From NCBI GenBank assembly GCA_016195725.1, contig JACPZB010000085.1:1-57974 (forward strand): a stretch of 57,974 nucleotides of DNA, read 5' to 3'. Of the stretch, positions 21,494 to 45,402 are shown in pieces. The notes under the pieces were generated by a model. The model saw nothing but the letters and a program-made list of their open reading frames with translations. It made no database searches and had not been told where the DNA came from. Numbering within the stretch: position 1 is the stretch's first letter; every line of letters starts with the position of its first letter. Source of the DNA: Deltaproteobacteria bacterium. Lineage in GTDB: Bacteria > Desulfobacterota > GWC2-55-46 > UBA9637. Both the position numbers and the translations under genes were made by a program.

Positions 21494-21610
21494 TTACCCT
21501 TTTAATTTGGCCCGGTGAGGTTAAGAAAGGGAATAAAAATGGAAAAGTTATATAATTTGGACCATAGAAATACCCCCTTGTCAGATTGATAGGCAAGGGG
21601 GTATTTTTTT
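21494..21610 (+). promoter_or_regulatory. PyrR-dependent transcription attenuator: binding-loop hairpin plus intrinsic terminator
   Basis: GGCCCGGUGAGGUUAAGAAAGG closely resembles the PyrR binding-loop consensus (UCCAGAGAGGCU..AGAAGG) and is closed by CCCTTT/AAAGGG. The terminator ATACCCCCTTG(21570-21580)/CAAGGGGGTAT(21594-21604) plus T7 lies directly upstream of pyrR. Confidence 0.75.
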
Positions 21611-21625
21611 ACGTAAGGAATAAGT

Positions 21626-22159
21626 ATGAGTATAAAGAATATCATAGATGCAAAAGCCATAGAAAGGGCTCTTACGAGAATAGCTCACGAGATTATTGAA
21701 AAGAACAAGGGGCTTGAAGATATTGTCATACTTGGCATCCCAACCCGCGGCGTACATATTGCCAAGAGGCTAAGAGATATATTAGAAGCTACTGAAGGTG
21801 TTCATCTGCCGGTTGGCAGTGTTGATGCAACGCTTTATAGGGACGATATTGGTATGAAGCAAGATCAGCCAATGTTAAAAGAAACAGATATACCTGTCTC
21901 AATTGATAATAAAAAGATTATTATCATTGATGATGTGTTGTTTACCGGCAGGACAATCAGGGCTGCCATGAATGTGATCATGGATTTCGGCAGGCCAGCC
22001 AATATCCAGTTGGCTGTTTTAATTGACAGGGGGCATAGAGAACTGCCTATAAGGCCTGATTATGTAGGTAAAAATGTGCCAACCTCAATGCAGGAGAAGG
22101 TAAAGGTGCGCTTGAAAGAGATAGATGGCGCAGATGAGGTGGTTGTAGAGGCAGAATGA
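21626..22159 (+). CDS. pyrR: Bifunctional pyrimidine operon regulator / uracil phosphoribosyltransferase PyrR
   Basis: The PRPP-binding loop IIIIDDVLFTGRTIRAA and RELPIRPDYVGKN. 177 aa. Confidence 0.93.
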   Translation: MSIKNIIDAKAIERALTRIAHEIIEKNKGLEDIVILGIPTRGVHIAKRLRDILEATEGVHLPVGSVDATLYRDDIGMKQDQPMLKETDIPVSIDNKKIIIIDDVLFTGRTIRAAMNVIMDFGRPANIQLAVLIDRGHRELPIRPDYVGKNVPTSMQEKVKVRLKEIDGADEVVVEAE

Positions 22160-22221
22160 AACTCAAATCTCAAAGTAGGTAAAGATTGAGCTTACGCACC
22201 AAAACTCAAAACTACAACCTT

Positions 22222-22268
22222 ATAACTCAAAACTAAAAAAACATTTTAGTTTGAAGGTTTTGAGTTAT
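22222..22268. repeat. Word-stutter hairpin (ACTCAAAAC words) between pyrR and pyrB
   Basis: ATAACTCAAAAC (22222-22233) pairs with GTTTTGAGTTAT (22257-22268), a perfect 12 bp. There is an inner AAACTAAAA/TTTTAGTTT pairing. No U-tract follows. Confidence 0.8.
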
Positions 22269-22303
22269 AGTTTTGACATTTGACTTTTGAGTTTTGAGTT
22301 CAA

Positions 22304-23236
22304 GTGATTATGAGACTCAAGAGAAAAGATATATTAACCATTGAAGATCTTACCAGAGATGAGATAGAGCTTATTTTATCTACCGCCGGGTCTTTTAGAG
22401 AGGTGTCTGAAAGGGAAATTAAGAAGGTTCCTACCTTAAGGGGGAGGACCATCATAAACCTCTTTTATGAGGCATCCACAAGGACAAGGACATCTTTTGA
22501 AATTGCCGCGAAGAGGATGAGCGCCGATGCAATAAATATTTCTGCATCATCAAGCAGCGTTGTAAAAGGGGAGACATTAAAAGATACCGCAAAAAATCTT
22601 GAGGCAATGAATCCTGATTGTATTGTTCTGAGACACCCTTCAAGCGGCGCGCCTGATATGCTTGCAAGGTTTGTAAAATGCCCTGTTATAAATGCAGGGG
22701 ATGGCAGCCATGAGCATCCGAGTCAGGCGCTTCTCGATTTATTAACGATTAAGGAAAAATTGGGCAGAATAGACGGATTGAAGATTACGATAGTTGGGGA
22801 TATAGCCCATAGCAGAGTGGCAAGAAGCAACATATATGGTTTTACAAAGCTTGGTGCAAAGGTGAATGTTGTTGCAGCGCCTACAATGATGCCGATGGGG
22901 ATTGAGGAGATGGGATGCACTATAATCAATAGGGTAGAAGATGCAATAAGTGTTGCAGATGTGATTATGATATTAAGGGTTCAACTGGAAAGGCATAAGG
23001 TGCCCCTTTTCCCGAGCTTGAGGGAATATTCAAGACTTTTTGGCTTAGATAAGGAAAAGATGGAAAGGGCAAAAAAGGATGTTGTTATATTGCATCCAGG
23101 GCCGATAAATAGAGGTGTGGAAATATCACCTGAGATTGCTGATGGACCGTATTCCCTTATTTTAGATCAGGTAAAAAATGGTGTGGCTGTGAGGATGGCG
23201 CTCTTTTATCTGTTGTTAGGAGGCGGTCGTGAATAA
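22304..23236 (+). CDS. pyrB: Aspartate carbamoyltransferase catalytic subunit
   Basis: [22 protein letters not shown] and the RMALFYLL tail. The start could be GTG 22304 or ATG 22310. Confidence 0.94.
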
Positions 23237-24542
23237 GTTGTTAATTAAAGGTGGAAGGGTAATTGACCCGGTTAACAATATTGATAGTTTATTTGATATT
23301 TATTCAATAGGCGGTAAGATTGCTGCTGTAAAACCTGCAATCCCCACTAACCCCCCTTTAGAAAAGGGGGGGAGGGAGGATTTGAATGATTTGACCGTAA
23401 TAGACGCAACAGGTTTGGTTGTCTGCCCCGGTTTTATTGATATGCATACGCATTTAAGGGAGCCCGGCTATGAATATAAAGAGACTATACAGACCGGCAC
23501 AATGGCTGCGGCAGCAGGAGGGTTTACATCAATTGCGTGCATGGCGAATACGGATCCTGTAAACGATAATGCATCGGTTACAAGATACATACTTAAGAAG
23601 GCTCAAGAACAAGGCGCTGTCAATGTATATCCTGTCGGCGCGGTAAGCAAGGGTTTGAAAGGAGAGGCATTGGCTGAGATTGGCGAGCTCAAAGAGGCTG
23701 GATGTGCAGCAATTTCTGATGACGGGAGGCCTGTCATGAACAGCGGTTTCATGAGATTGGCCATGGAATATGCAAAAACCTTTAACCTCTTAGTTATTAG
23801 CCATTGTGAAGATACAGGACTTTCTTCTGAGGGCGTGATGAATGAGGGTTGGATTGCAACGAAGCTCGGATTAAAGGGCATACCCAATTGTGCTGAAGAT
23901 ATTATGGCGGCTCGGGATATTGTCCTGTCAGCGCTCACTAATTGCAGACTGCATATTGCGCATATAAGCACCGCAGGTTCTGTTGAGCTTGTTAGGATAG
24001 CAAAGGCTAAAGGTCTGAATGTGACAGCAGAGGCTGCGCCCCACCACTTTACATTGTCAGATGAGGCTGTTATCGGTTATAATACCAATGCTAAAATGAG
24101 TCCGCCTCTGAGGGGCAAAGACGATATAGAGGCATTGAGGCAAGGGCTTAAGCACGGGACAATAGATGTTATTGCAACCGACCACGCGCCTCAGGCGCTT
24201 GTTGAAAAGGATGTTGAGTTTGATAAAGCGTCAAATGGCATCATTGGATTAGAAACTGCATTGCCGTTATCGTTAAGGCTTGTTCATGATAATGTTTTAG
24301 ACTTGTCGGGTTTGATTAAAAAGATGTCTGTGAACCCAGCCATGCTCCTTGGGCTTGATGCCAAGGGGACATTAAAAGTTGGGGCTGATGCTGATATAAC
24401 AATTATTGATTTGAATAAAGAATGGATTGTCAATGCCAAAGAATTAAAATCAAAAAGCAGGAATACTCCGTTTGACGGATGGAAGATGAAGGGACGGGTT
24501 GTAAAGACGATTGTGGCAGGGAAGGTAGTTTATGAAGCATGA
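23229..24542 (+). CDS. pyrC: Dihydroorotase (carrying an in-frame palindromic-element insertion near the N-terminus)
   Basis: [19 protein letters not shown] and [11 protein letters not shown]. Overlaps pyrB by 8 nt. Confidence 0.93.
23339..23383. repeat. C5/G5 palindromic mini-element, in-frame copy inside pyrC
   Basis: AATCCCCACTAACCCCCCTTTAGAAAAGGGGGGGAGGGAGGATTT. It is homologous to 44-91 and encodes [15 protein letters not shown]. Confidence 0.8.
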
Positions 24543-24963
24543 GATAATAAAACTTTTACAGCCATATTTTGAGAAAAGAGATGACATTATTATGGCCTTT
24601 CTCTTCGGTTCATGGGCAAGCGATAAAGGGGGAATGGAATCGGATGTTGATGTGGCAGTCTATTTCAAACCTAAGACAGGCAGGCTTGAATGGGAAGATG
24701 CTGATGCGAGGTATGACGGGGAAGCTGTTTTGTGGCGAGAGATAGAGGGGCTTTTAGGCAGAGAGGTTGATCTGCTGGTTCTCAACAGGGCTGCATCGGG
24801 CATTGCTGAAAGTGCCATAAGCGGTATGCCTGTTATTATAAAGGACAGGGACTTGTATATGGACTTTATGATGAAGGTAACATCCGAGGCTGCGGACTAC
24901 AGGGAATTTGTTATGAGTTACTGGAAATTGAAAGAGGAGATGAGGACGCATGCTTGCAAATAG
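24532..24963 (+). CDS. mntA: MntA-type minimal nucleotidyltransferase (type VII antitoxin)
   Basis: [22 protein letters not shown] carries the GS...DxD NTase motif. It overlaps pyrC by 11 nt and hepT by 14 nt. Confidence 0.85.
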
Positions 24964-25387
24964 AGATAAAGAGCGGCTTGCAAAACATCTGGATTTTTTT
25001 ACAAGCGAATTGGGAGATTTTCAGAAATTCAGGGAATATACATGGAATGATTATCAGTTTGACAGGGATAAACGCAGAAACATTGAAAGGTGGATTGAAA
25101 ATCTTACCAATTCAGTTATTGATATGGCCAAAATATTTCTTGCCGGTGAAGACTTTCCTATGCCTCAAACCTATAAAGAGGCGCTGTTTGCTTTTGGAGC
25201 CAGATATTTTAATGAGGATTTCGGCAAAAAGATTGAGACATGGGGAGTTTTAAGAAATATCGTTGCCCATGAATATCTGGATATAAGATGGAATTCCATT
25301 AAGACATTTATTGGGACAAGCCGGCCATTTTTAGAAGATATACATCATAAAGTCAAAGAAATTCTACTACATGGAGAAGGCAAATGA
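24950..25387 (+). CDS. hepT: HepT-type HEPN (DUF86) RNase toxin
   Basis: LRNIVAHEYLDI carries the Rx4HxY HEPN/DUF86 catalytic motif. 145 aa. Overlaps purS by 4 nt. Confidence 0.85.
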   Translation: MLANRDKERLAKHLDFFTSELGDFQKFREYTWNDYQFDRDKRRNIERWIENLTNSVIDMAKIFLAGEDFPMPQTYKEALFAFGARYFNEDFGKKIETWGVLRNIVAHEYLDIRWNSIKTFIGTSRPFLEDIHHKVKEILLHGEGK

Positions 25388-25623
25388 AGGCAAAGGTTTA
25401 TGTCACATTTAAAAAAGGTGTTCTTGACCCGCAAGGCAAGGCTGTAGGCGCCGCACTTGAATCTATGGGGTATCATGAGGTCAAGAGCCTGAGGATAGGC
25501 AAGTTTATAGAGATTGACTTGAACGGTCTGTCAAAGACAGAGGCTGAAGAAAGGCTCAAAGAGATGTGTAAAAAACTTCTGGCAAATACGGTTGTTGAAG
25601 ACTATAAGGTGGAGATAGAATGA
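25384..25623 (+). CDS. purS: Phosphoribosylformylglycinamidine synthase subunit PurS
   Basis: 79 aa, with [18 protein letters not shown]...[14 protein letters not shown]. Confidence 0.92.
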
Positions 25624-26309
25624 AATTCGGCATCATAGTATTCCCTGGTTCCAACTGCGACCATGACTGCTACCATGCGGCAAAGCATGTATTTGGTCAG
25701 GATGCAGAATATATCTGGCACAAGGAGACAAGCGTGAAAGGTTTTGACTGCATTATTCTTCCTGGCGGATTTTCCTATGGTGACTATTTAAGAACCGGCG
25801 CCATTGCCAGATTCTCGCCTGTCATGAATGAGGTTATTAAATTTGCGAGTAGAGGCGGCCTTGTCCTCGGCATATGTAACGGTTTTCAGATATTGACGGA
25901 GGCAGGGCTTTTACCCGGTGTATTGATGAGAAATAAAGGCTTAAGGTTTATATGCCAAAGTGTTTATATCAGAGTAGAAAATAATCAAACAATATTTACC
26001 AAGGCTTACCAAAAAGGGCAGATTTTACATATTCCAATTGCCCATGCAGACGGAAATTATTTTGCAGATAAGGATGCCATCAAGAGACTGGAAGACAACA
26101 ATCAGATAATCTTCAGATATTCTACGAAAGACGGGCAAATCACGGATGATGCAAATCCAAATGGTTCTCTTAACAATATTGCGGGTGTGGTAAATGAAAA
26201 TGGCAATGTTTTTGGCACCATGCCGCATCCGGAAAGGGTTTGTGAATCACTGCTTGGGGGCGATGACGGCAGAGGTGTTTTTGAAGGTATTCTTTCCATT
26301 GTCTCTTAG
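25620..26309 (+). CDS. purQ: Phosphoribosylformylglycinamidine synthase glutaminase subunit PurQ
   Basis: [30 protein letters not shown] (catalytic Cys) and MPHPER. Confidence 0.94.
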
Positions 26310-26320
26310 ATGCTTGCAGT

Positions 26321-29062
26321 TTGAATTTTATGTCAGCATACAGCCAAAATAATTTCATAAAAGAGAGGCTTGAACTCTTTGACTTTATTTTGAAAGGGGG
26401 GTTTGACCTGAAAACAGGCAAGTTATGGATAATAGAGCCTTTTCAACTGAGATTCCGTTTAGGCGAATCTATAAAAGATTTAAAAATACCTTACCTGTTT
26501 GGCGGAGAGGATGAATCTATAATAGAAAAAGCTATTGTAGCGTTAATAGTGCTTTTAAAAAGACGTTTTGAGCCATATGTAGAGACTGGAATAAAAGACA
26601 GTCTTTCTTCACTTCTCGATATCGAAACCGCCTTGATAGAAAAAACTTACAGAACTGATTATTTCCTGCCGGATTCAGTGGAGAAAAATATTGCAAGCGA
26701 AATATTAACCACTACGCCGGTGATTGATAGTGGAATATTAAAGACATGGCTTGGCTCAAACGGTTATGGGAAGGCATACTATGTGCTGTGTAAAGCGATA
26801 TTAAGAAAGGCTGTATTAGAAGAACTGCACTTGGAAGGTATGGAGAGAACATCATTCTTGGCAGTTATGGCCATTGTCAATGCAACCAGAAAGAAAAAGG
26901 AAGACATTATAAGAAATGCAAAAGTGAGAAGTTTGAATTATGAGAGGTTAGACCAGATAATAGGGCTTGCGCTTTATTTTGTTTTAAAGACGGCTGCTAA
27001 GACTGTAGCATCTGAGCTAAAACAAATAATGTCATCATATGAATCAGCCGATACAGAAAGTCTTTTTGAAGGGTGTTTTACGCCGAGGAGTTTTTTGACT
27101 ATTTATGGAAACATCATTAATAGCGATTTAAATCCATACGGCTTGCAGAAGGATATAGTTGCATCTTTAAAGCCAGTCTATGAAGGCGCAGTTGCTGACG
27201 CTGCCACTACAGAAGATATTGCTGCAAGGATAGAGGACGAGATAAGAAAGAACAAATCTCTCATGGAAGAACTTACCCTGCTTTCCAATATCAACTATAT
27301 GCGACAACTTATAGCTGATTATCTCTTGGATTACGATATATCAGGCATGGATGTCCATCCTTTCCTTGCTGAGCTATATTGTGACAATAGACTTATTCAG
27401 AATTTGTTTGCTGATTCCACTGCTGCGGTTAAACTTATGGAGGGGTTAGAAAAGGTAAAAGGGCAATTTCCAAAGGATACGAGCCGAACAGAAAAAATCA
27501 ATGCGTTGTTGGAATTTATAGCATCGCTCAAAAAAACCTCATTGAGCAGTTTGTTGGGAATAGGTAAAAAAAGGGAAGCAACCATTGGAGGCATAATCAA
27601 TGGCCTCATTGCATACAGGTTTGATGAGGAGGTGGAAAAATTTGTCAGTTCAATGCGGGAATTAATGATTAATCGGCGCAGTGAATTTTCCAGCGAAACA
27701 TTAAAGATGGAATATGAAAGAGGCAGGCTCTACCGTTTCTCTACAGATGAGAGGCATATCCTCAAGGAGTTGGCGATTGAGGCGGAGGGGCATCTTTTTG
27801 TAGATATGAACGATTTCACAAGAAAGACCCTTCGGGCAAAGGAAATTACAATGGCTGACTTTATGGAATCAAATTTTTATAAGCCAATCTTAAGCGCCGC
27901 GAGCAGATACGGTTCTTCAACCAGTGGTTTGGCGAATAATAAGCAGAGTATAAAACTGAATAACCTATTAGGCGATGCGGCAGTTTTTTCCGGAGGGGTT
28001 ACGAATCTCATTGCCCTTGCAGGCGATATTCAGCAGATTATGAGGAGATATAAGGAGCAATTAAAGAAAAGAGTTCCCCATATTGTGGAAGAGGAGCTTC
28101 TCCAGAATGTTCATAGGAATTTTGAGGCAGTGAAAGAGGATATTGCGCGGGAATTGGCTGAAACAGAAAGGGCGGCGGTAGCAAGCGGGAAAAAAGAACT
28201 AAAAGAGAAGGTGTTAGAGCTGAAAGAAAAAGAACAGAGGCTTGAAAAGACATATGGAGAAGAATTAGAGGCCGCAATTGGCCAGGAGATGGAGGCAGGC
28301 CTCTTTATAGCATACGGGAGTAAGGCTGAAATTATTGCGATGCGGGATAGTTTTTGGGGCGAGGTGACGGTAGCTATCGGAGAAAAAATAAATGAGGCAG
28401 CAAGAGGCACTTCTCGAAGCTCTATCGTAAGGGCAAAGATGGAGAGGTTGCTCGAAGAGGAAAGGATGAAGAGGCATAATCCAAATCTTGCGTATCCTCT
28501 TGATGTTTATATAGACACAACATACGGCATTTTAATGCCCACAAGTTTGGATGATTTGATGGAGGCTATCATTATTCAGAAAAATATATCCAAGGCAAGA
28601 GATATAGCCCAGATATTGGCTCAGGAATCGTATAAGGACCTCAGAAGCATTATTTCCGGAGAGCCTTTTTCGTCTTTAAGGATACTAACCACTACGAGCG
28701 ATATATATAATAAGGGGCAAGCATTAAGCGAGGATGCATTGAACGCATATATAAAAGAGAATAGAGGAAAGGGATTCTTTTTTAAACGAAAAGCTCAGAT
28801 AACGGAATTGGATAAAGAAATACAGAAGACCTTTTTCTTTCCCTTTAAAATATTGAAGCTGTGGTTTGGAGTATTCGTTACAGAGGGGATGAAGAATATT
28901 GAAATATTTTGTAAGGCGGGAGAAATAACCTTTAAAGGTTTTGAGGCGGCAACCCCGACAGTTGTCTACGAGATAGTCAATAAAAATTCAGAGTTTTCAA
29001 GGTTTTTGTTAAAGCATCACTTTGATACATGGTATGAAGATGCAAAAAGGGCATCAAGGTAG
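26321..29062 (+). CDS. Large (913 aa) uncharacterised protein. It has a helical N-terminal half and a putative divergent class III nucleotidyl-cyclase-like core (about aa 488-700, nt 27782-28420) interrupted by a coiled-coil insert.
   Basis: HLFVDMNDFT resembles lFaDivGFT. LLGDAAVFSG resembles iGDa.mavFg. GLFIAYGSKAEI and VAIGEKINEAARG resemble riGih.G and v.GdtVNlAaR. A charged heptad-like insert spans aa ~583-657. The start could be TTG 26321 or ATG 26330, 11-20 nt after purQ. Confidence 0.7.
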   Translation: MNFMSAYSQNNFIKERLELFDFILKGGFDLKTGKLWIIEPFQLRFRLGESIKDLKIPYLFGGEDESIIEKAIVALIVLLKRRFEPYVETGIKDSLSSLLDIETALIEKTYRTDYFLPDSVEKNIASEILTTTPVIDSGILKTWLGSNGYGKAYYVLCKAILRKAVLEELHLEGMERTSFLAVMAIVNATRKKKEDIIRNAKVRSLNYERLDQIIGLALYFVLKTAAKTVASELKQIMSSYESADTESLFEGCFTPRSFLTIYGNIINSDLNPYGLQKDIVASLKPVYEGAVADAATTEDIAARIEDEIRKNKSLMEELTLLSNINYMRQLIADYLLDYDISGMDVHPFLAELYCDNRLIQNLFADSTAAVKLMEGLEKVKGQFPKDTSRTEKINALLEFIASLKKTSLSSLLGIGKKREATIGGIINGLIAYRFDEEVEKFVSSMRELMINRRSEFSSETLKMEYERGRLYRFSTDERHILKELAIEAEGHLFVDMNDFTRKTLRAKEITMADFMESNFYKPILSAASRYGSSTSGLANNKQSIKLNNLLGDAAVFSGGVTNLIALAGDIQQIMRRYKEQLKKRVPHIVEEELLQNVHRNFEAVKEDIARELAETERAAVASGKKELKEKVLELKEKEQRLEKTYGEELEAAIGQEMEAGLFIAYGSKAEIIAMRDSFWGEVTVAIGEKINEAARGTSRSSIVRAKMERLLEEERMKRHNPNLAYPLDVYIDTTYGILMPTSLDDLMEAIIIQKNISKARDIAQILAQESYKDLRSIISGEPFSSLRILTTTSDIYNKGQALSEDALNAYIKENRGKGFFFKRKAQITELDKEIQKTFFFPFKILKLWFGVFVTEGMKNIEIFCKAGEITFKGFEAATPTVVYEIVNKNSEFSRFLLKHHFDTWYEDAKRASR

Positions 29063-31176: not shown

Positions 31177-32550
31177 ATGGTCGGAAAAATTGTGGAAATA
31201 GGCGCTTGTGAGGGTGTTGAGAAAATCCTTTCTCAGAAAGGATATGCTGTGGAGCATGTGGAACAAAAAAAAGTTTTAGATGTATTAAGAAAAGAAGGGG
31301 TAGAGGCCGTTGTTATTGATATAGACGATACGGTAAAATCTCATGTAGTTATAAGCGGTATTAGACATCTTTATCCTGGTTTATGGATAACGGCCATCTC
31401 TCATAATAATAATGATAAGCAAATTTCTCTTATATTAAAAGCTGGCGCTAGCAAGTATGTTCTAAAACCAATCAACGAAGACAATCTTTCTGTAAGTGAA
31501 GAACAGCAGGCGGCTGTTGCCCAGCCCTCTCCATCAAAGATGCAGATAAATCCTGCTATTTTAGACGAATCTAAAAAAATATTCCCGCCCCGGTTTCATA
31601 ATGCCTTTTTTTTAACAGAATACGGCAAGTTAGAGACATTACGAGCAGAAAGATACACTAAGAACTTTTCTATCATTCTTACTCATATAGAAGAATTTCA
31701 CCATCTCAAAAAAAAACTGGAAAAAAACGAACTTCTGGCTTTTCTAAAAGATATTATAAAGACCATCATGGAGACTTTAAGAAATTGCGATGTTATTGGA
31801 ATGGTGGAGGATAAAAAGCTTGTTGCCATACTTCCGGAAACTGATTATTTTGGTTCGTGCATAGCTGTAAGAAAAATCAAAAAGGCCATAGAGAATGCAG
31901 CTACGAAAGGTGAGCCGCATGCCTCTATTATATTTTCCAATGTTTCATACCCGCGGGATGGCAAGGGATATGGTGAATTACTGAGCGCAGCCGAGCAACG
32001 GGCAAGAGAACAGAAAGAGGGGATATGGCAAAAGTTAAAGTTTGAAGACAGGCCCTTTTGGGAGATTATTTCTACCCTGCTTGAGGAAAAGGGCTATGAA
32101 GAAAAAGAGGTAGCTCCTTTTGACCTTGGCAAGGGGCTTGACCTTCCTATATTCTTCCTTGACAGGCTTCAAGAAATAGCCCTTCAGGAGATAGTGCGAG
32201 ATCCGAAGAAAAAAGGTTACCTCTATATTGGAATAAGAAAGATTCTGCCCAACCTTCCTCTTTTGAAGTCCTTGGATACCATAGGCTCTACGGCAACAAA
32301 AATCTTTGTGGTCGGTGAAGGTGAAGAAGGTAGATGGAACCTTACAAATGCAACCCCTTTATATCTGACGGACCCCCGTTTATTGGAGACGTTCTTCATT
32401 TTTTTCCTCAGAGAAGATTTTGCATATGCAGTTGCATGCAAGGAGCGGTGGGGCGAGCAATATTCATGTTTCCATACAGTAGACCCATATCTTATAGAGG
32501 GTTTGATAAGTAAGTTTCAGGCAGATTATTCTCTACAGGAGCAAATATAA
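31177..32550 (+). CDS. Signalling protein: degenerate receiver-like domain, degenerate GGDEF-like domain and a DICT-like C-terminal domain
   Basis: The receiver lacks the N-terminal acidic pair (IVEIGACEG) but keeps VVIDID, ITAIS and KYVLKP. The GGDEF-fold region FSIILTHIEEFHHLKK...VIGMVEDKKLVAILPETD has MVEDK in place of GGDEF. The C-terminus ...ETFFIFFLREDFAYAVACKE...FHTVDPYLIEGL resembles DICT. Confidence 0.6.
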   Translation: MVGKIVEIGACEGVEKILSQKGYAVEHVEQKKVLDVLRKEGVEAVVIDIDDTVKSHVVISGIRHLYPGLWITAISHNNNDKQISLILKAGASKYVLKPINEDNLSVSEEQQAAVAQPSPSKMQINPAILDESKKIFPPRFHNAFFLTEYGKLETLRAERYTKNFSIILTHIEEFHHLKKKLEKNELLAFLKDIIKTIMETLRNCDVIGMVEDKKLVAILPETDYFGSCIAVRKIKKAIENAATKGEPHASIIFSNVSYPRDGKGYGELLSAAEQRAREQKEGIWQKLKFEDRPFWEIISTLLEEKGYEEKEVAPFDLGKGLDLPIFFLDRLQEIALQEIVRDPKKKGYLYIGIRKILPNLPLLKSLDTIGSTATKIFVVGEGEEGRWNLTNATPLYLTDPRLLETFFIFFLREDFAYAVACKERWGEQYSCFHTVDPYLIEGLISKFQADYSLQEQI

Positions 32551-32610
32551 ATCATAAACGGAAGCCGATAGTCAAAAGAAAAATACAGCAATAAAAGCAG
32601 GTAGAAAATT

Positions 32611-34173
32611 ATGGCAGACAACAAAAAAATCTTGCTGACCTTTCATGATAAAGACAATATGTCAGCTATTGGCGAGTATTTAAAACAAAAAGGTTTTCGT
32701 ATACTCGCTGCCAATGATGGCGCTGCTGTTATGGAGATTGCCTTAAATGAAAAGCCGTCAATAATAATAGTTGAGCTTGATCTTCCTGTGATAGACGGTG
32801 AAAGGGTCTTCCAAATACTGCGCAACAATCCGCATACGGCTAATCTGCCTTTTATCTTTATAGGCTCTGAGGCTGTAGATATTAAAGGTTTTCGTAGGGA
32901 TATTGATTCGCTTTTGCTTCAGCCGGTGAAGGGAGAGGAAATATTAAAAAGGATAAACAGCGCATTTGCTGGAAAAGAGGGGCTGAAGGCTCAGATTAGC
33001 GATAAGGAGATTGAAGGAAGACTTTCTCATATTTCACTGGGAGATTTATTGCAGATACTTCATCTTAACAGAAAGGAAGGCGTGCTAAAAGTCTCTCACG
33101 AGGATGAGGAAGGTCTTATTTATATAAAGGAAGGGGTAATATACAATGCAGCTATAGGGGAAATGGAAAGGGAGAAGGCATTGTTCAGGCTTCTAACATG
33201 GCATGATGGCAAGTTTGAGTTTTCACCAAAACTAATTGATATTCCTCAAAAGATACATCGTTCCGCCGGCAATCTATTAATGGAAGGTATGCGTCAGTAT
33301 GATGAATGGAATAAGGCAAAAGAGCAGCTGCCAAAACCTGATTCCAAGATGAAACTAAAAGTTGATATTTCCAGTTTGCCAAAGGGGCTGAAACCTATCA
33401 TATATGAGGTTATGTTTCTAATAGATTTCTATCCTACGGTTAAGGATCTCGTGGACCACTGTACCTTTCCTGATTATGAAGTTTATCAAACTTTAGCAGG
33501 TTTGGTGCGTAAAGGGGTTCTGGAAAATATCAAAGATAAAAAGGGTGAAGAAAAACTGGGAGCGGATGTGCGGAAAATACTCACGTCCAGCCAGGCATTA
33601 AAGATTAGAGAAAAGGTTTCTAACAGGTGGAAAGATATGGAGGACGCAACATTTGGCAAGATATTTATAGTAGCCTCTAATGATAACCTTGTTATGAACT
33701 TAGTTGACTCCTGCAAAGAGCTTCCTGGTTTTTCTGTAAACAGGCAATTTATTACATCTCCAATGTATCGCGAGAACCCTCTCGGAGATATAGCAACGCT
33801 TAAATTGCATGGGGGCATGGAGATAGTTTTATTTGCCATTCCTCGGAATGTACGAATGAAACCTTTATGGAAGGCATTTTCTAAAAATATTATAGGGATG
33901 ATTATAGTATGTGATAATGAAGACATGCGTGACGCCAAACAACTATCATCTGTTAAGGACTATATGCTTTCTCTGCGACGTATCCCTATCATATACGCTA
34001 TTTCTGCTCGTAAAGACATTGAGAGGGGGCAAGAGGAAGAGTTTAGAAGGATGTTGGCAATGAAGAGAGAAGAAAGAATATTTGCCTTTGAGCCGATGGA
34101 TCACGACAAAGTGTTTCAGATTTTCAGCTCCTTCTTTAGTTACCTGCTGAAAGATGAGTATATATCGGGATAA
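32611..34173 (+). CDS. Response-regulator receiver, a DUF4388 (PATAN-type) domain and a degenerate small-GTPase-like C-terminal domain
   Basis: REC: KILLTFHDKD...IIIVELDLPVIDG. DUF4388: GRLSHISLGDLLQILHLNRKEGVLKV...IYIKEGVIYNA...LLTWHDGKFEF. The C-terminus KIFIVASNDN...IIVCDNED...AISARKD has a Ras-like layout but no P-loop GxxxxGK. Confidence 0.65.
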   Translation: MADNKKILLTFHDKDNMSAIGEYLKQKGFRILAANDGAAVMEIALNEKPSIIIVELDLPVIDGERVFQILRNNPHTANLPFIFIGSEAVDIKGFRRDIDSLLLQPVKGEEILKRINSAFAGKEGLKAQISDKEIEGRLSHISLGDLLQILHLNRKEGVLKVSHEDEEGLIYIKEGVIYNAAIGEMEREKALFRLLTWHDGKFEFSPKLIDIPQKIHRSAGNLLMEGMRQYDEWNKAKEQLPKPDSKMKLKVDISSLPKGLKPIIYEVMFLIDFYPTVKDLVDHCTFPDYEVYQTLAGLVRKGVLENIKDKKGEEKLGADVRKILTSSQALKIREKVSNRWKDMEDATFGKIFIVASNDNLVMNLVDSCKELPGFSVNRQFITSPMYRENPLGDIATLKLHGGMEIVLFAIPRNVRMKPLWKAFSKNIIGMIIVCDNEDMRDAKQLSSVKDYMLSLRRIPIIYAISARKDIERGQEEEFRRMLAMKREERIFAFEPMDHDKVFQIFSSFFSYLLKDEYISG

Positions 34174-39662: not shown

Positions 39663-39945
39663 GGGGAGGCATCATACTGATTGCAGGTCTCTAAATAAAA
39701 TTGCACAAAAACCTTATCGCTATTTTCTCGTATTTTCCTCTCGACATCGGCTGCAAACAAGATATTTTCTTGCACGTGACTTTCATCACAGCTTGCCCAG
39801 AAAGTATTTTGCTATATTGAAAACGAAAAATTGAAAAGCTAATGTCTTAAAAAATGAATAATCTCCTTTGCTCAGAGCAATCCCTTGGAAACGAGGTGAG
39901 CGCAGAGCCACGAAACTAAATCCTTAAAAAGAGGTATGTTAGTCG

Positions 39946-39982
39946 AGCCGCCAAAGGTACCAAGCCCTTGGCGGCTTTTTTA
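39946..39982 (+). terminator. Strong intrinsic terminator about 280 nt downstream of ald
   Basis: AGCCGCCAAAGG, the loop TACCAAGC, CCTTGGCGGCT (11 bp with one bulge), followed by TTTTTTAT. Confidence 0.7.
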
Positions 39983-40003
39983 TTTGTGCTGCATGAGGTT
40001 AGT

Positions 40004-40889
40004 ATGAACAAGGCTGATAGCAATAATAATGTCTTTGAATGGTTTCTGATCGTGACTGCGGCGATTACGGTATGCATCGGCGGTTATGAGAGCTATGCCC
40101 AGAGATATTGGCCTGCTTACAGCATACTTGGCTTACTGCAACTGCACGGTTATCTGAAAGGGTATCCGGTGATATATGCGCCGAGCAAGGGCATATGGCT
40201 GCCCGTTGCATGGACAGGGGCGATCATGATGGTGGTGATGATGCTTTACAGCATACGGGAGGGTGAAGCTCAGGCAAACTACGAAAGAGGCCCTTCTGGA
40301 TCTCTGGATGCAGGTAATAAATAAAACAGGATTAAAGATAAGGACAGGTGAAAAGATGCTGGATGTAAAAAAGGATGGGGATTGCTTCAGGCTTGCAACC
40401 ACAAAAGGCGAATACCCCGCTAAGAATATAATACTGGCAATTGGGAGGAGGGGTACACCGAGAAAGCTTGGAGTTCCGGGAGAAAAGCTGCCAAAGGTAT
40501 CTTACAGATTGCTGGAGCCTGAACAGCACCGGAACCAACACCTCCTTGTAGTTGGCGGCGGAGACAGCGCGGTAGAGGCTGCTGTTGCGCTGGCCAGCCA
40601 GCCGCAGAACCATGTGACTATTTCATACAGAGGTCAGGCGTTCAGCCGAATAAAACCGGCAAACCAGCAGCGGCTTGACAGCATGATATCAAAAAATGGT
40701 ACTTGCAAAGTTATATTGAATTCAAATGTCGCAGAGATAGGTAAAGGAGATACAAAGGTTTCCACACCTGAAAAGGTTATCGTAATCCCAAACGATTACG
40801 TCTACATATTTGCCGGCGGCGAGCTGCCAAACGAGTTCCTGAAAAAGACAGGTGTGCAGATTGAGAAAAAGTTTGGGACTGCTGCCTGA
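40004..40889 (+). pseudogene. Membrane-domain / thioredoxin-reductase-like NAD(P)/FAD oxidoreductase with an internal deletion. The FAD GxGxxG segment is missing and the frame is broken.
   Basis: ORF 1 (to 40324) encodes TM helices ending in MLYSIRE. ORF 2 (from 40263, a different frame) starts mid-domain at ...TKEALLDLWMQVINKTGLKIRTG...LAIGRRGTPRKLGVPGE...LLVVGGGDSAVEAAVALA. No N-terminal dinucleotide-binding motif occurs anywhere. Confidence 0.6.
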
Positions 40890-44169: not shown

Positions 44170-45402
44170 ATGGCTATGGAGGAAAAATCAGTATCTGCTG
44201 TCAAAGATAAGGCAGAAGGTTATTTTTCCAAAGGCAGATTTAAAGAGGCTCTTGAGGCATATGAGAGTATAAGACCGTATTCCGGCAAAGATCCGAGGAT
44301 TGTTTTGCGGATAGGGGACATATGCAGAAAGATGGGGAAGAATGATGAGGCGGTGAATGCATATAAGCAGGCTGCGAATGTATTTATCTTGCAGGGGTTC
44401 GTTACCAAGGCAATAGGTGTGTGCAAGATTATAATGGATATAGACCCATCCCAAACTGCTGTTCAGCAAAAGATAGCTGAATTGTATAGCAAAAAAGGTT
44501 TTGTAGCCAAGGGTGAGAAAAGTCCTCAGGTGGTTCAAGGAGTAAAACCTGCAGAGGCTGCAACAGAACAGGCCGCGAAATTTCCAAGGACGCCGCTTTT
44601 TTCTGACCTCACCAAAGATGAATTGCTGGCGATTATCGGCAAGGTAAAGCACCATATTATTTCGCCTGGCGTATTTATCTTTAGAGAGGGCGATAAAGGC
44701 GATTCTATATACATAATTAACAGTGGAACAGTAGATATAATCGGCAAAGATAAAAAGGGGCATGATGTTACTTTGGCGACATTAAAAGAAGGCGATTTTT
44801 TTGGAGAGTTTGGCTTCTTTTCAAATGCAAAAAGAGAGGCATCGGTGAGGGGATCATCGCCTGTTAGCATTCTTGAGATTATTAAGGGCGATGTAGATGC
44901 TATTATTGAAAAGCATAAAAGAGTTGCTGTAGTTCTTTTTGATTTCTATAAGGAGAGGGTAGTTGACAGACTGATGGCCTTGTCTCCGATATTTGAGCCA
45001 TTAACGCCGGCTGACAGAAAGACTGTTCTCGCCAGATTGACCTCGCAGAAGTTTGAGCAAGGCGTAAACATAGTAAAAGAAGGTGAGGTAGGCGATACTA
45101 TGTATTTGATCAAAACAGGAGAGGTCAATGTCTGGGTTCAGGACCCTGCAAAAGGAAAGGTAGTAATGGCCACTCTATCAGAGGGAGATTTCTTTGGAGA
45201 AATAGCATTGGCTACAGCCAGACCGCGCGTTGCAAATGTTACTGCGGTTACCAATACAGAACTTATTCTGTTCTCACGACCGATGATAAAGGACATACTT
45301 GTCAAGTATCCTGCTGTAAAAAATGTCCTGGAAGATGTTATTAAGACAAGGGTTGCTGGTGTGATAAAAATAAAAGGGCTACAGTCTGCTGCGCTGGTAT
45401 AA
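44170..45402 (+). CDS. TPR-like N-terminal domain fused to two cyclic-nucleotide-binding (CAP_ED) domains
   Basis: There are two copies of the cNMP-binding pattern: (F)REGDKGDSIYIINSGTVDI...GDFFGEFGFF...REASVRG and KEGEVGDTMYLIKTGEVNV...GDFFGEIALA...RVANV. Confidence 0.85.
   Translation: MAMEEKSVSAVKDKAEGYFSKGRFKEALEAYESIRPYSGKDPRIVLRIGDICRKMGKNDEAVNAYKQAANVFILQGFVTKAIGVCKIIMDIDPSQTAVQQKIAELYSKKGFVAKGEKSPQVVQGVKPAEAATEQAAKFPRTPLFSDLTKDELLAIIGKVKHHIISPGVFIFREGDKGDSIYIINSGTVDIIGKDKKGHDVTLATLKEGDFFGEFGFFSNAKREASVRGSSPVSILEIIKGDVDAIIEKHKRVAVVLFDFYKERVVDRLMALSPIFEPLTPADRKTVLARLTSQKFEQGVNIVKEGEVGDTMYLIKTGEVNVWVQDPAKGKVVMATLSEGDFFGEIALATARPRVANVTAVTNTELILFSRPMIKDILVKYPAVKNVLEDVIKTRVAGVIKIKGLQSAALV

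Follow-up and report, generated by a model that had tools for sequence, protein, structure and literature searches.

Positions 26321-29062 (+) of contig JACPZB010000085.1, a stretch of 57,974 nt from a Deltaproteobacteria bacterium (assembly GCA_016195725.1) that was analysed at its full length and is called the window below, hold an open reading frame (ORF) of 913 aa whose product is predicted to be an active nucleotide-cyclising enzyme, with a probability that we put at roughly 0.6. The protein would be a soluble, multidomain enzyme carrying a deeply divergent class III cyclase-homology domain (CHD) module, and the structural model suggests that it is probably a synthase of a signalling nucleotide rather than an enzyme of the purine pathway. 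Homology in fold between its C-terminal half and the class III CHD appears very likely from the same model. A sequence-only reading of the DNA had proposed from the motifs a hidden and divided core resembling class III cyclases, and fold comparison, profile-profile alignment and family-wide residue conservation agree with such a predicted core. The family, widespread yet uncurated, is missed by the Pfam, NCBIfam and PADLOC models, and we class it as a new form of the class III CHD with an unusual architecture.

The full-length protein, modelled from a 19-sequence alignment, reached a predicted local distance difference test score (pLDDT) of 60, and its fold search against the PDB returned helical noise only. 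Residues 455-913 were re-modelled with a 98-sequence alignment, which gave a pLDDT of 93.2 and a predicted template-modelling score (pTM) of 0.90, and the top 34 Foldseek matches of this second model in the PDB are all catalytic domains of class III adenylyl or guanylyl cyclases (AC or GC), with probabilities of ~0.9-1.0, E values down to ~1e-4 and TM-scores on the target (TMt) of 0.45-0.64. They include Cya2 of Synechocystis (2w01, E 9.9e-5), bPAC of Beggiatoa (5mbd and others), OaPAC (4yut), RhGC (6sir), Ma1120 of M. avium (4wp8, root-mean-square deviation 4.1 Å, TMt 0.57), soluble GC (3uvj and 2wz1, with a TMt of 0.64 for 3uvj_B) and soluble AC (4cls). The first non-cyclase fold stands at rank 35 with a probability of 0.3, and a library of viral structures yielded no structural relative of the cyclase-like protein. 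The palm domain anticipated from the motifs is thereby found in the predicted structure, together with C-terminal elements specific to the CHD.

Profile-profile comparison with genuine cyclases leads to the same fold. The comparison profile was made of 24 genuine PF00211 proteins, retrieved with an Rv1625c bait that was itself excluded. Aligned uncut with hhalign, the family gave a weak local alignment (E 0.0075) which breaks at the first of two inserts and pairs D495 with the metal Asp of beta1 and G551-D552 with the 'GD' turn. After residues 587-654 and 701-814 had been taken out of the family alignment, the E value became 2.3e-4 and the match to the PF00211 cyclases was collinear across the whole CHD at a relaxed posterior threshold; D495 and D552 correspond to D44 and D88, both invariant in the cyclase profile, AGLFIAYG to vGLAtG in beta4, KINEAAR to AVNVASR in helix 4 (with N691 and R695 on the cyclase Asn and Arg) and, at low posteriors, FKGFE...VVYEI to VKGKG...TWYLV in beta7-beta8. 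Controls gave E values of at least 0.098 for a reversed query or template, at least 0.14 for twenty column shuffles and at least 0.0039 for twenty shuffles preserving blocks of 10 columns, so that the excised alignment outscores all 62 reversed or shuffled controls (best 0.0039).

The same comparisons bear on where the domain ends. The sequence-only reading had closed the cyclase domain near residue 710 and recognised nothing in the last ~200 aa, a view now superseded by hhalign and Foldseek, according to which the fold probably extends to residue 886 and the final third of it probably lies in that region. Including the third segment (residues 818-886) shifts the hhalign E value from 1.5e-3 to 2.3e-4, with the alignment running collinearly to the cyclase 'VKGKG...WYL' end, and the same soluble GC domain matches with a TMt of 0.64 over 416-418 columns as against 0.45 over 273 columns. 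The placing of FKGFE as the 'KG' loop is consistent with these long Foldseek alignments, and their gain in TM-score, together with strong conservation, independently favours the beta6-beta8 assignment.

Conservation was counted in 83 homologues, down to ~20% identity. The four motif segments occur in the order that had been reported, HLFVDMNDFT (D495), LLGDAAVFSG (D552), GLFIAYGSKAEI (660-671) and VAIGEKINEAARG (N691 and R695), as a check of the codons confirms. D495 is invariant (83/83), D552 is kept in 78/83 members (with Glu in two more), N691 in 76/83 and R695 in 77/83 (with Lys in two more), and the four occur together in 76 of the 83. Other positions are conserved too: K/R872 (75/83), G873 (78/83), E884 (83/83), G660 (82/83), G666 (83/83) and G696 (83/83). 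Since D495 is invariant and the other three catalytic residues are at least 90% conserved, the motif match exceeds what chance would give, and a tetrad retained at ~20% overall identity speaks for a functional site of two-metal nucleotidyl transfer. All catalytic residue types are present on one chain, which would fit a homodimer. The residue three positions before the glycine of the GD turn specifies the base: adenylyl cyclases have Lys there, guanylyl cyclases Glu. The PF00211 profile has an invariant K84 at this position, and the window protein has Asn548 (Asn in 69/83 homologues, Ser in 8/83); the nucleotide used is therefore not predictable from the sequence.

The cyclase fold probably runs, in the model, from residue 488 to 886, broken by residues 585-659 and 697-817 and closing in a canonical-looking 'KG...YE' motif. 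Its first segment (aa 488-584, 27782-28072 (+)) comprises beta1 (LFVDMNDFT), alpha1, a beta2/beta3 hairpin reading NNLLGDAAVFSG (N548, G551 and D552) and alpha2, as placed by the model and hhalign. Insert 1 (aa 585-659, 28073-28297 (+)) is modelled as a charged antiparallel two-helix hairpin with helices at 590-622 and 625-653; the charged, coiled-coil-like insert noticed in the raw sequence is thus real, with D, E, K or R at 43% of positions 585-659. Its length varies between 8 and 175 aa among the 83 sequences, no column of it reaches 90% conservation, and it is the source of every spurious coiled-coil match in the Pfam and PDB-sequence searches. The second segment (aa 660-696, 28298-28408 (+)), likewise placed by the model and hhalign, holds beta4 (GLFIAYG), beta5, a further strand and alpha4 (EKINEAARG). 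It is followed by insert 2 (aa 697-817, 28409-28771 (+)), modelled as a family-specific alpha/beta subdomain of constant length (median 120 aa) with 8 columns at least 90% conserved and no counterpart in the PF00211 profile. The hairpin DIYNKGQALS of insert 2 (Y796, N797, G799, A801 and S803) is near-invariant, with N797 in 82/83 and G799 in 83/83 sequences, and its conservation equals that of the catalytic residues. The third segment (aa 818-886, 28772-28978 (+)) is assigned with moderate support and would contain beta6, alpha5, beta7, the 'FKGFE' loop (K872 and G873) and beta8, VVYEIV (E884). The three CHD segments are the best conserved and most length-invariant parts of the protein. A C-terminal amphipathic helix (aa 887-913, with the stop codon 28979-29062 (+)) ends the chain, modelled at 891-912 with a pLDDT of ~97. 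A tandem pseudo-dimer, in which residues 725-913 would be a duplicated second cyclase domain, is not supported, there being no internal similarity (E 0.24).

The CHD is preceded by a region of ~480 aa (aa 1-487, 26321-27781 (+)), which is mostly alpha-helical in the low-confidence full-length model and is presumed to be a regulatory or sensor module. Its length is conserved (median 476 aa in the 83 sequences) and it closes with a pre-cyclase motif, EYxxGRLYRxSxD, in which G468 is invariant; it has no Pfam, NCBIfam or PDB-sequence match, and its fold search gave noise only. No transmembrane segment was found in the 913-aa protein (maximum Kyte-Doolittle(19) value 1.49). The listed ORF of 913 aa begins at a TTG, and the true start is probably the ATG at 26330, giving a 910-aa product, because the Met that opens the closest homologue aligns with residue M4.

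Compared with the class III CHD of PF00211 (Cya2, bPAC, Ma1120 and M. tuberculosis Rv1625c-type proteins), the family has a similar predicted fold and order of strands and helices, the beta1 metal Asp in 'LFxDxxxFT', the second Asp where the beta2-beta3 hairpin turns at 'GD', a beta4 of the form 'G-h-h-h-x-x-G', the Asn...Arg pair of helix 4 and, putatively, the closing 'KG' loop and 'YE' strand. Unlike that domain, it carries the variable helical hairpin between alpha2 and beta4, the conserved subdomain that separates alpha4 from beta6, one more strand before alpha4, Asn at the Lys/Glu position and the long helical region ahead of the CHD, and it goes undetected by PF00211.

In the mechanism that we propose, the nucleoside triphosphate (NTP) would be bound with two Mg2+ or Mn2+ ions held by D495 in beta1 and D552 in the beta2-beta3 turn, and the ribose 3'-OH would attack the alpha-phosphate to release pyrophosphate and a cyclic nucleotide. 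N691 and R695 of helix 4 would stabilise the transition state, and the terminal phosphate would be contacted by K/R872 of the beta7-beta8 loop. Like other class III enzymes, the protein would form its active site where two subunits of a dimer meet. Its helical N-terminal region would regulate the activity, and the family-specific hairpin around N797 and G799 may reshape the pocket or the interface. A more tentative and rather unlikely extension is that the signal is neither cyclic AMP (cAMP) nor cyclic GMP (cGMP), but for instance a pyrimidine or other non-canonical cyclic or linear nucleotide made by a site rebuilt around Asn548 and the N797/G799 hairpin, which might even replace the partner subunit, with no need of a canonical dimer interface. 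If this were true, the PyrR-attenuated expression of pyr and pur genes described below for the window's clade would couple the signal to nucleotide supply.

Several observations weigh against an active cyclase. PF00211 has no match at E <= 1 in the window protein, nor at E <= 0.01 in 53 diverse members; the structural TM-scores are moderate, which we attribute to the two inserts; the beta6-beta8 stretch has low hhalign posteriors and is insignificant alone; neither canonical base-specifying pair of residues (Lys/Asp for ATP, Glu with Cys/Ser/Ala for GTP) is present, and the second specificity position is ambiguous, being D676 by hhalign (58/83) or V684 when counted from the Asn (71/83); and 7/83 members, among the most divergent, have degenerate catalytic sets. 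To these is added the existence of a non-enzymatic CHD-like fold, the cytoplasmic domain of AdvA from Acinetobacter baumannii, in which both the catalytic residues and the dimerisation arm are missing and which shows no cyclase or NTPase activity (PMC13060281). AdvA is the sole relevant comparator found in the literature, where no description of the family of the 913-aa protein was found; the two share a CHD-like fold that is invisible to sequence search and seen by structure comparison only, as well as extra helical elements (PMC13060281). The window protein could accordingly be an inert, cyclase-like scaffold whose fold was kept for protein-protein interaction or ligand binding, for which the two sizeable inserts and the long stretches of helix offer possible surfaces, and the missing base-specifying residues and the members without the tetrad would agree with this. 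Unlike AdvA, which lost its catalytic residues, the family is under strong purifying selection at the tetrad down to ~20% identity, a pattern not readily explained unless the site is catalytic or at least binds metal and nucleotide, and an inert scaffold is considered unlikely. About equally unlikely is a palm-domain nucleotidyltransferase of other chemistry, making di- or oligonucleotides in the manner of GGDEF, Cas10 or the minimal CRISPR polymerase mCpol, or hydrolysing nucleotides, instead of making a 3',5'-cyclic nucleoside monophosphate (cNMP). The palms of these proteins and of the CHD go back to one ancestral core, in which two acidic residues in equivalent places bind the metals. Asn548 is non-canonical, the conserved extra subdomain with N797 and G799 could form a second substrate site, and mCpol (9pd0) does appear in the Foldseek list as a weak match (rank 42, E 0.25); against this, none of the 34 leading matches is GGDEF or Cas10, no GGDEF structure is found in the top 50, PF00990 (GGDEF) matches neither the window protein nor the 53 members, and the hairpin reads LLGDAAVF with no GG[DE]EF motif, whereas F-T following the Asp of beta1, the N...R pair of helix 4 and the putative KG...YE end are CHD features. 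That the motifs arose by chance in some unrelated helical or coiled-coil protein would be compatible with the lack of profile-level matches to PF00211 or PDB cyclase sequences and with the poor first model; it is effectively refuted by the high-confidence model that matches cyclase folds only, by the collinear alignment that beats every control and by the motif residues, which vary little or not at all.

A role in purine or pyrimidine metabolism, whether as a substitute for PurL or as a regulator dedicated to the pathway, is considered very unlikely, although the gene lies directly after purQ in a polycistron headed by a PyrR attenuator and no purL was found among the large ORFs of the window scanned with Pfam. 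The ORF has no AIRS or AIRS_C signal in Pfam or NCBIfam, as had been noted in the form of absent PurL motifs, and its predicted fold is that of a cyclase; its only likeness to PurL, the large subunit of formylglycinamidine ribonucleotide (FGAM) synthase and usual partner of PurS and PurQ, is its position after purS-purQ in the window's clade. The gene order was followed in 83 fetched loci (numbered L001 onwards). The pyrR-pyrB-pyrC-(mntA-hepT)-purS-purQ-ORF arrangement is present at every locus with a homologue of at least 66% identity, and purS-purQ also precede the gene in L043 (39% homologue), which brings the linkage to 11/83 loci, two of them duplicates. The other ~70 loci (26-47% identity) have no pur or pyr gene near the homologue. 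One homologue of 44% (P0019) stands alone, divergent from a TPR cluster, and another of 32% (P0021) is downstream of a radical-SAM gene, whereas in the 40-47% clade (L011-L064) the 3' side of the gene is occupied by convergent genes for a LarE-like PP-loop ATPase and a ThiI/tRNA-methyltransferase-like protein (42 and 37 loci) and its 5' side by divergent TPR/PMT-type membrane proteins, in a conserved order with no operon and no co-transcribed partner. Even close relatives differ downstream, with miaB-BFN-GGDEF in the window, L009 and L010 and DUF2905 plus LPG-synthase in L001 and L004. The adjacency to purQ is therefore a lineage-specific gene order that does not indicate a family-wide purine role. 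On its domain content and this distribution, the replacement of PurL is rejected, and neither the proposed occupation of a purL slot nor the functional tie to nucleotide synthesis is supported. The preferred reading remains that of an active, signalling cyclase.

The family is large. The sequence-only reading had called the protein an orphan, which is contradicted at three levels: a word-indexed search found 21 relatives, with identities from 77% down to 32%; an exhaustive profile search found at least 255 representatives of 50%-identity clusters at E <= 1e-3 (213 at E <= 1e-10), most of them 800-1020 aa long, aligned end to end and of the same architecture; and a scan of species-representative genomes, with a 19-sequence alignment as the query, found 106 encoding loci in more than 100 species. 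The hosts are nearly all uncultured Thermodesulfobacteriota or 'Deltaproteobacteria' known as metagenome-assembled genomes (MAGs) from groundwater and sediments, with a few Myxococcota or Zymogenaceae, and the few source names on record for the relatives are all 'hypothetical protein'. Some genomes encode two paralogues, as L075 and L082 of MAG CAYJRR01, which are diverged and 26-28% identical to the query; such pairs, together with the degenerate catalytic sets, suggest possible catalytic/regulatory pairs.

Sequence-based searches left the family unannotated throughout. The 53 diverse members matched no Pfam model, DUFs included, and NCBIfam had no significant match to the 913-aa protein. Searches of PDB sequences, with the single sequence or with an 83-sequence family profile, returned no cyclase and only coiled-coil noise from insert 1, and PADLOC gave for seven members a single match, DrmMI (E 0.0018), in the coiled coil of one member, none being judged real. 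A regex search for canonical cyclases in the fetched loci (~1 Mb) recovered only the protein's own family.

Bacteria and eukaryotes rely mainly on class III cyclases for their cAMP and cGMP, and the models used to count these enzymes in genome surveys are of the PF00211 type. Because the family is invisible to such models yet keeps the catalytic machinery, the second-messenger inventories of these anaerobes would be incomplete. The hosts, Thermodesulfobacteriota, Myxococcota and relatives, are mostly uncultured and environmentally important. Three departures set the family apart from textbook cyclases, namely the two inserts within the fold, the non-canonical base-specifying residue and the large N-terminal module, and a novel substrate, mode of active-site formation or sensory input could come to light from this architecture. 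Here the motifs alone, read from raw DNA, anticipated a homology that took deep alignment and structure prediction to establish.

In the window, the gene closes a polycistron (21494-26309 (+)) composed of a PyrR-binding leader, pyrR, pyrB, pyrC, mntA, hepT, purS and purQ, as delimited by Rfam, Pfam and the gaps at the junctions; Pfam identifies the nearest neighbours as an MntA-type nucleotidyltransferase, HepT, PurS and PurQ. The leader is the PyrR-binding site RF00515 at 21494-21611 (+), directly 5' of pyrR, scoring 54.8 bits where the gathering threshold is 54, and its place ahead of pyrR means that the long pyr/pur polycistron ending in the cyclase-like gene is probably under attenuation by PyrR and uridine monophosphate (UMP). 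In the window's clade, the 913-aa gene is probably co-transcribed from a PyrR-attenuated operon. The chain of overlapping stop and start codons described earlier holds from pyrB through purQ, where the junctions overlap by 4-14 nt, but not for pyrR and pyrB, which are separated by 144 nt. The reported distance of 11 nt between purQ (stop at 26309) and the TTG at 26321 is borne out by the coordinates, and from purQ to the ATG at 26330 it is 20 nt. Promoter and terminator scans around the gene gave counts no higher than chance.

The MntA/HepT toxin-antitoxin pair (24532-25387 (+)) sits between pyrC and purS, joined by stop and start codons that overlap. All or part of it occurs in L001/L007, L006 and L008, and it is absent from L004/L005, L009 and L010; with such a patchy distribution it looks like a mobile element that has entered a biosynthetic operon.

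Elsewhere in the window, the cNMP-binding protein that had been noticed at 44170 does exist (44170-45402) and has two cNMP-binding domains by Pfam; it lies 15 kb from the cyclase-like gene, with unrelated genes between, and the suggestion that it might be the receptor finds no support in the analysis. Two response-regulator proteins are encoded at 31177-34173 (+), one with REC and a weak GGDEF match (E 1.4e-7) and the other with REC and DUF4388, and are conserved along with miaB and the BFN nuclease in L009 and L010 only. A c-di-GMP-I riboswitch aptamer (RF01051) is found at 39866-39955 (+), scoring 46 bits where the gathering threshold is 35, and is followed by small ORFs at 39968-40324 and 40263-40889. 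With the response regulators, this riboswitch and the cNMP-binding protein, the window is rich in nucleotide-signalling genes.

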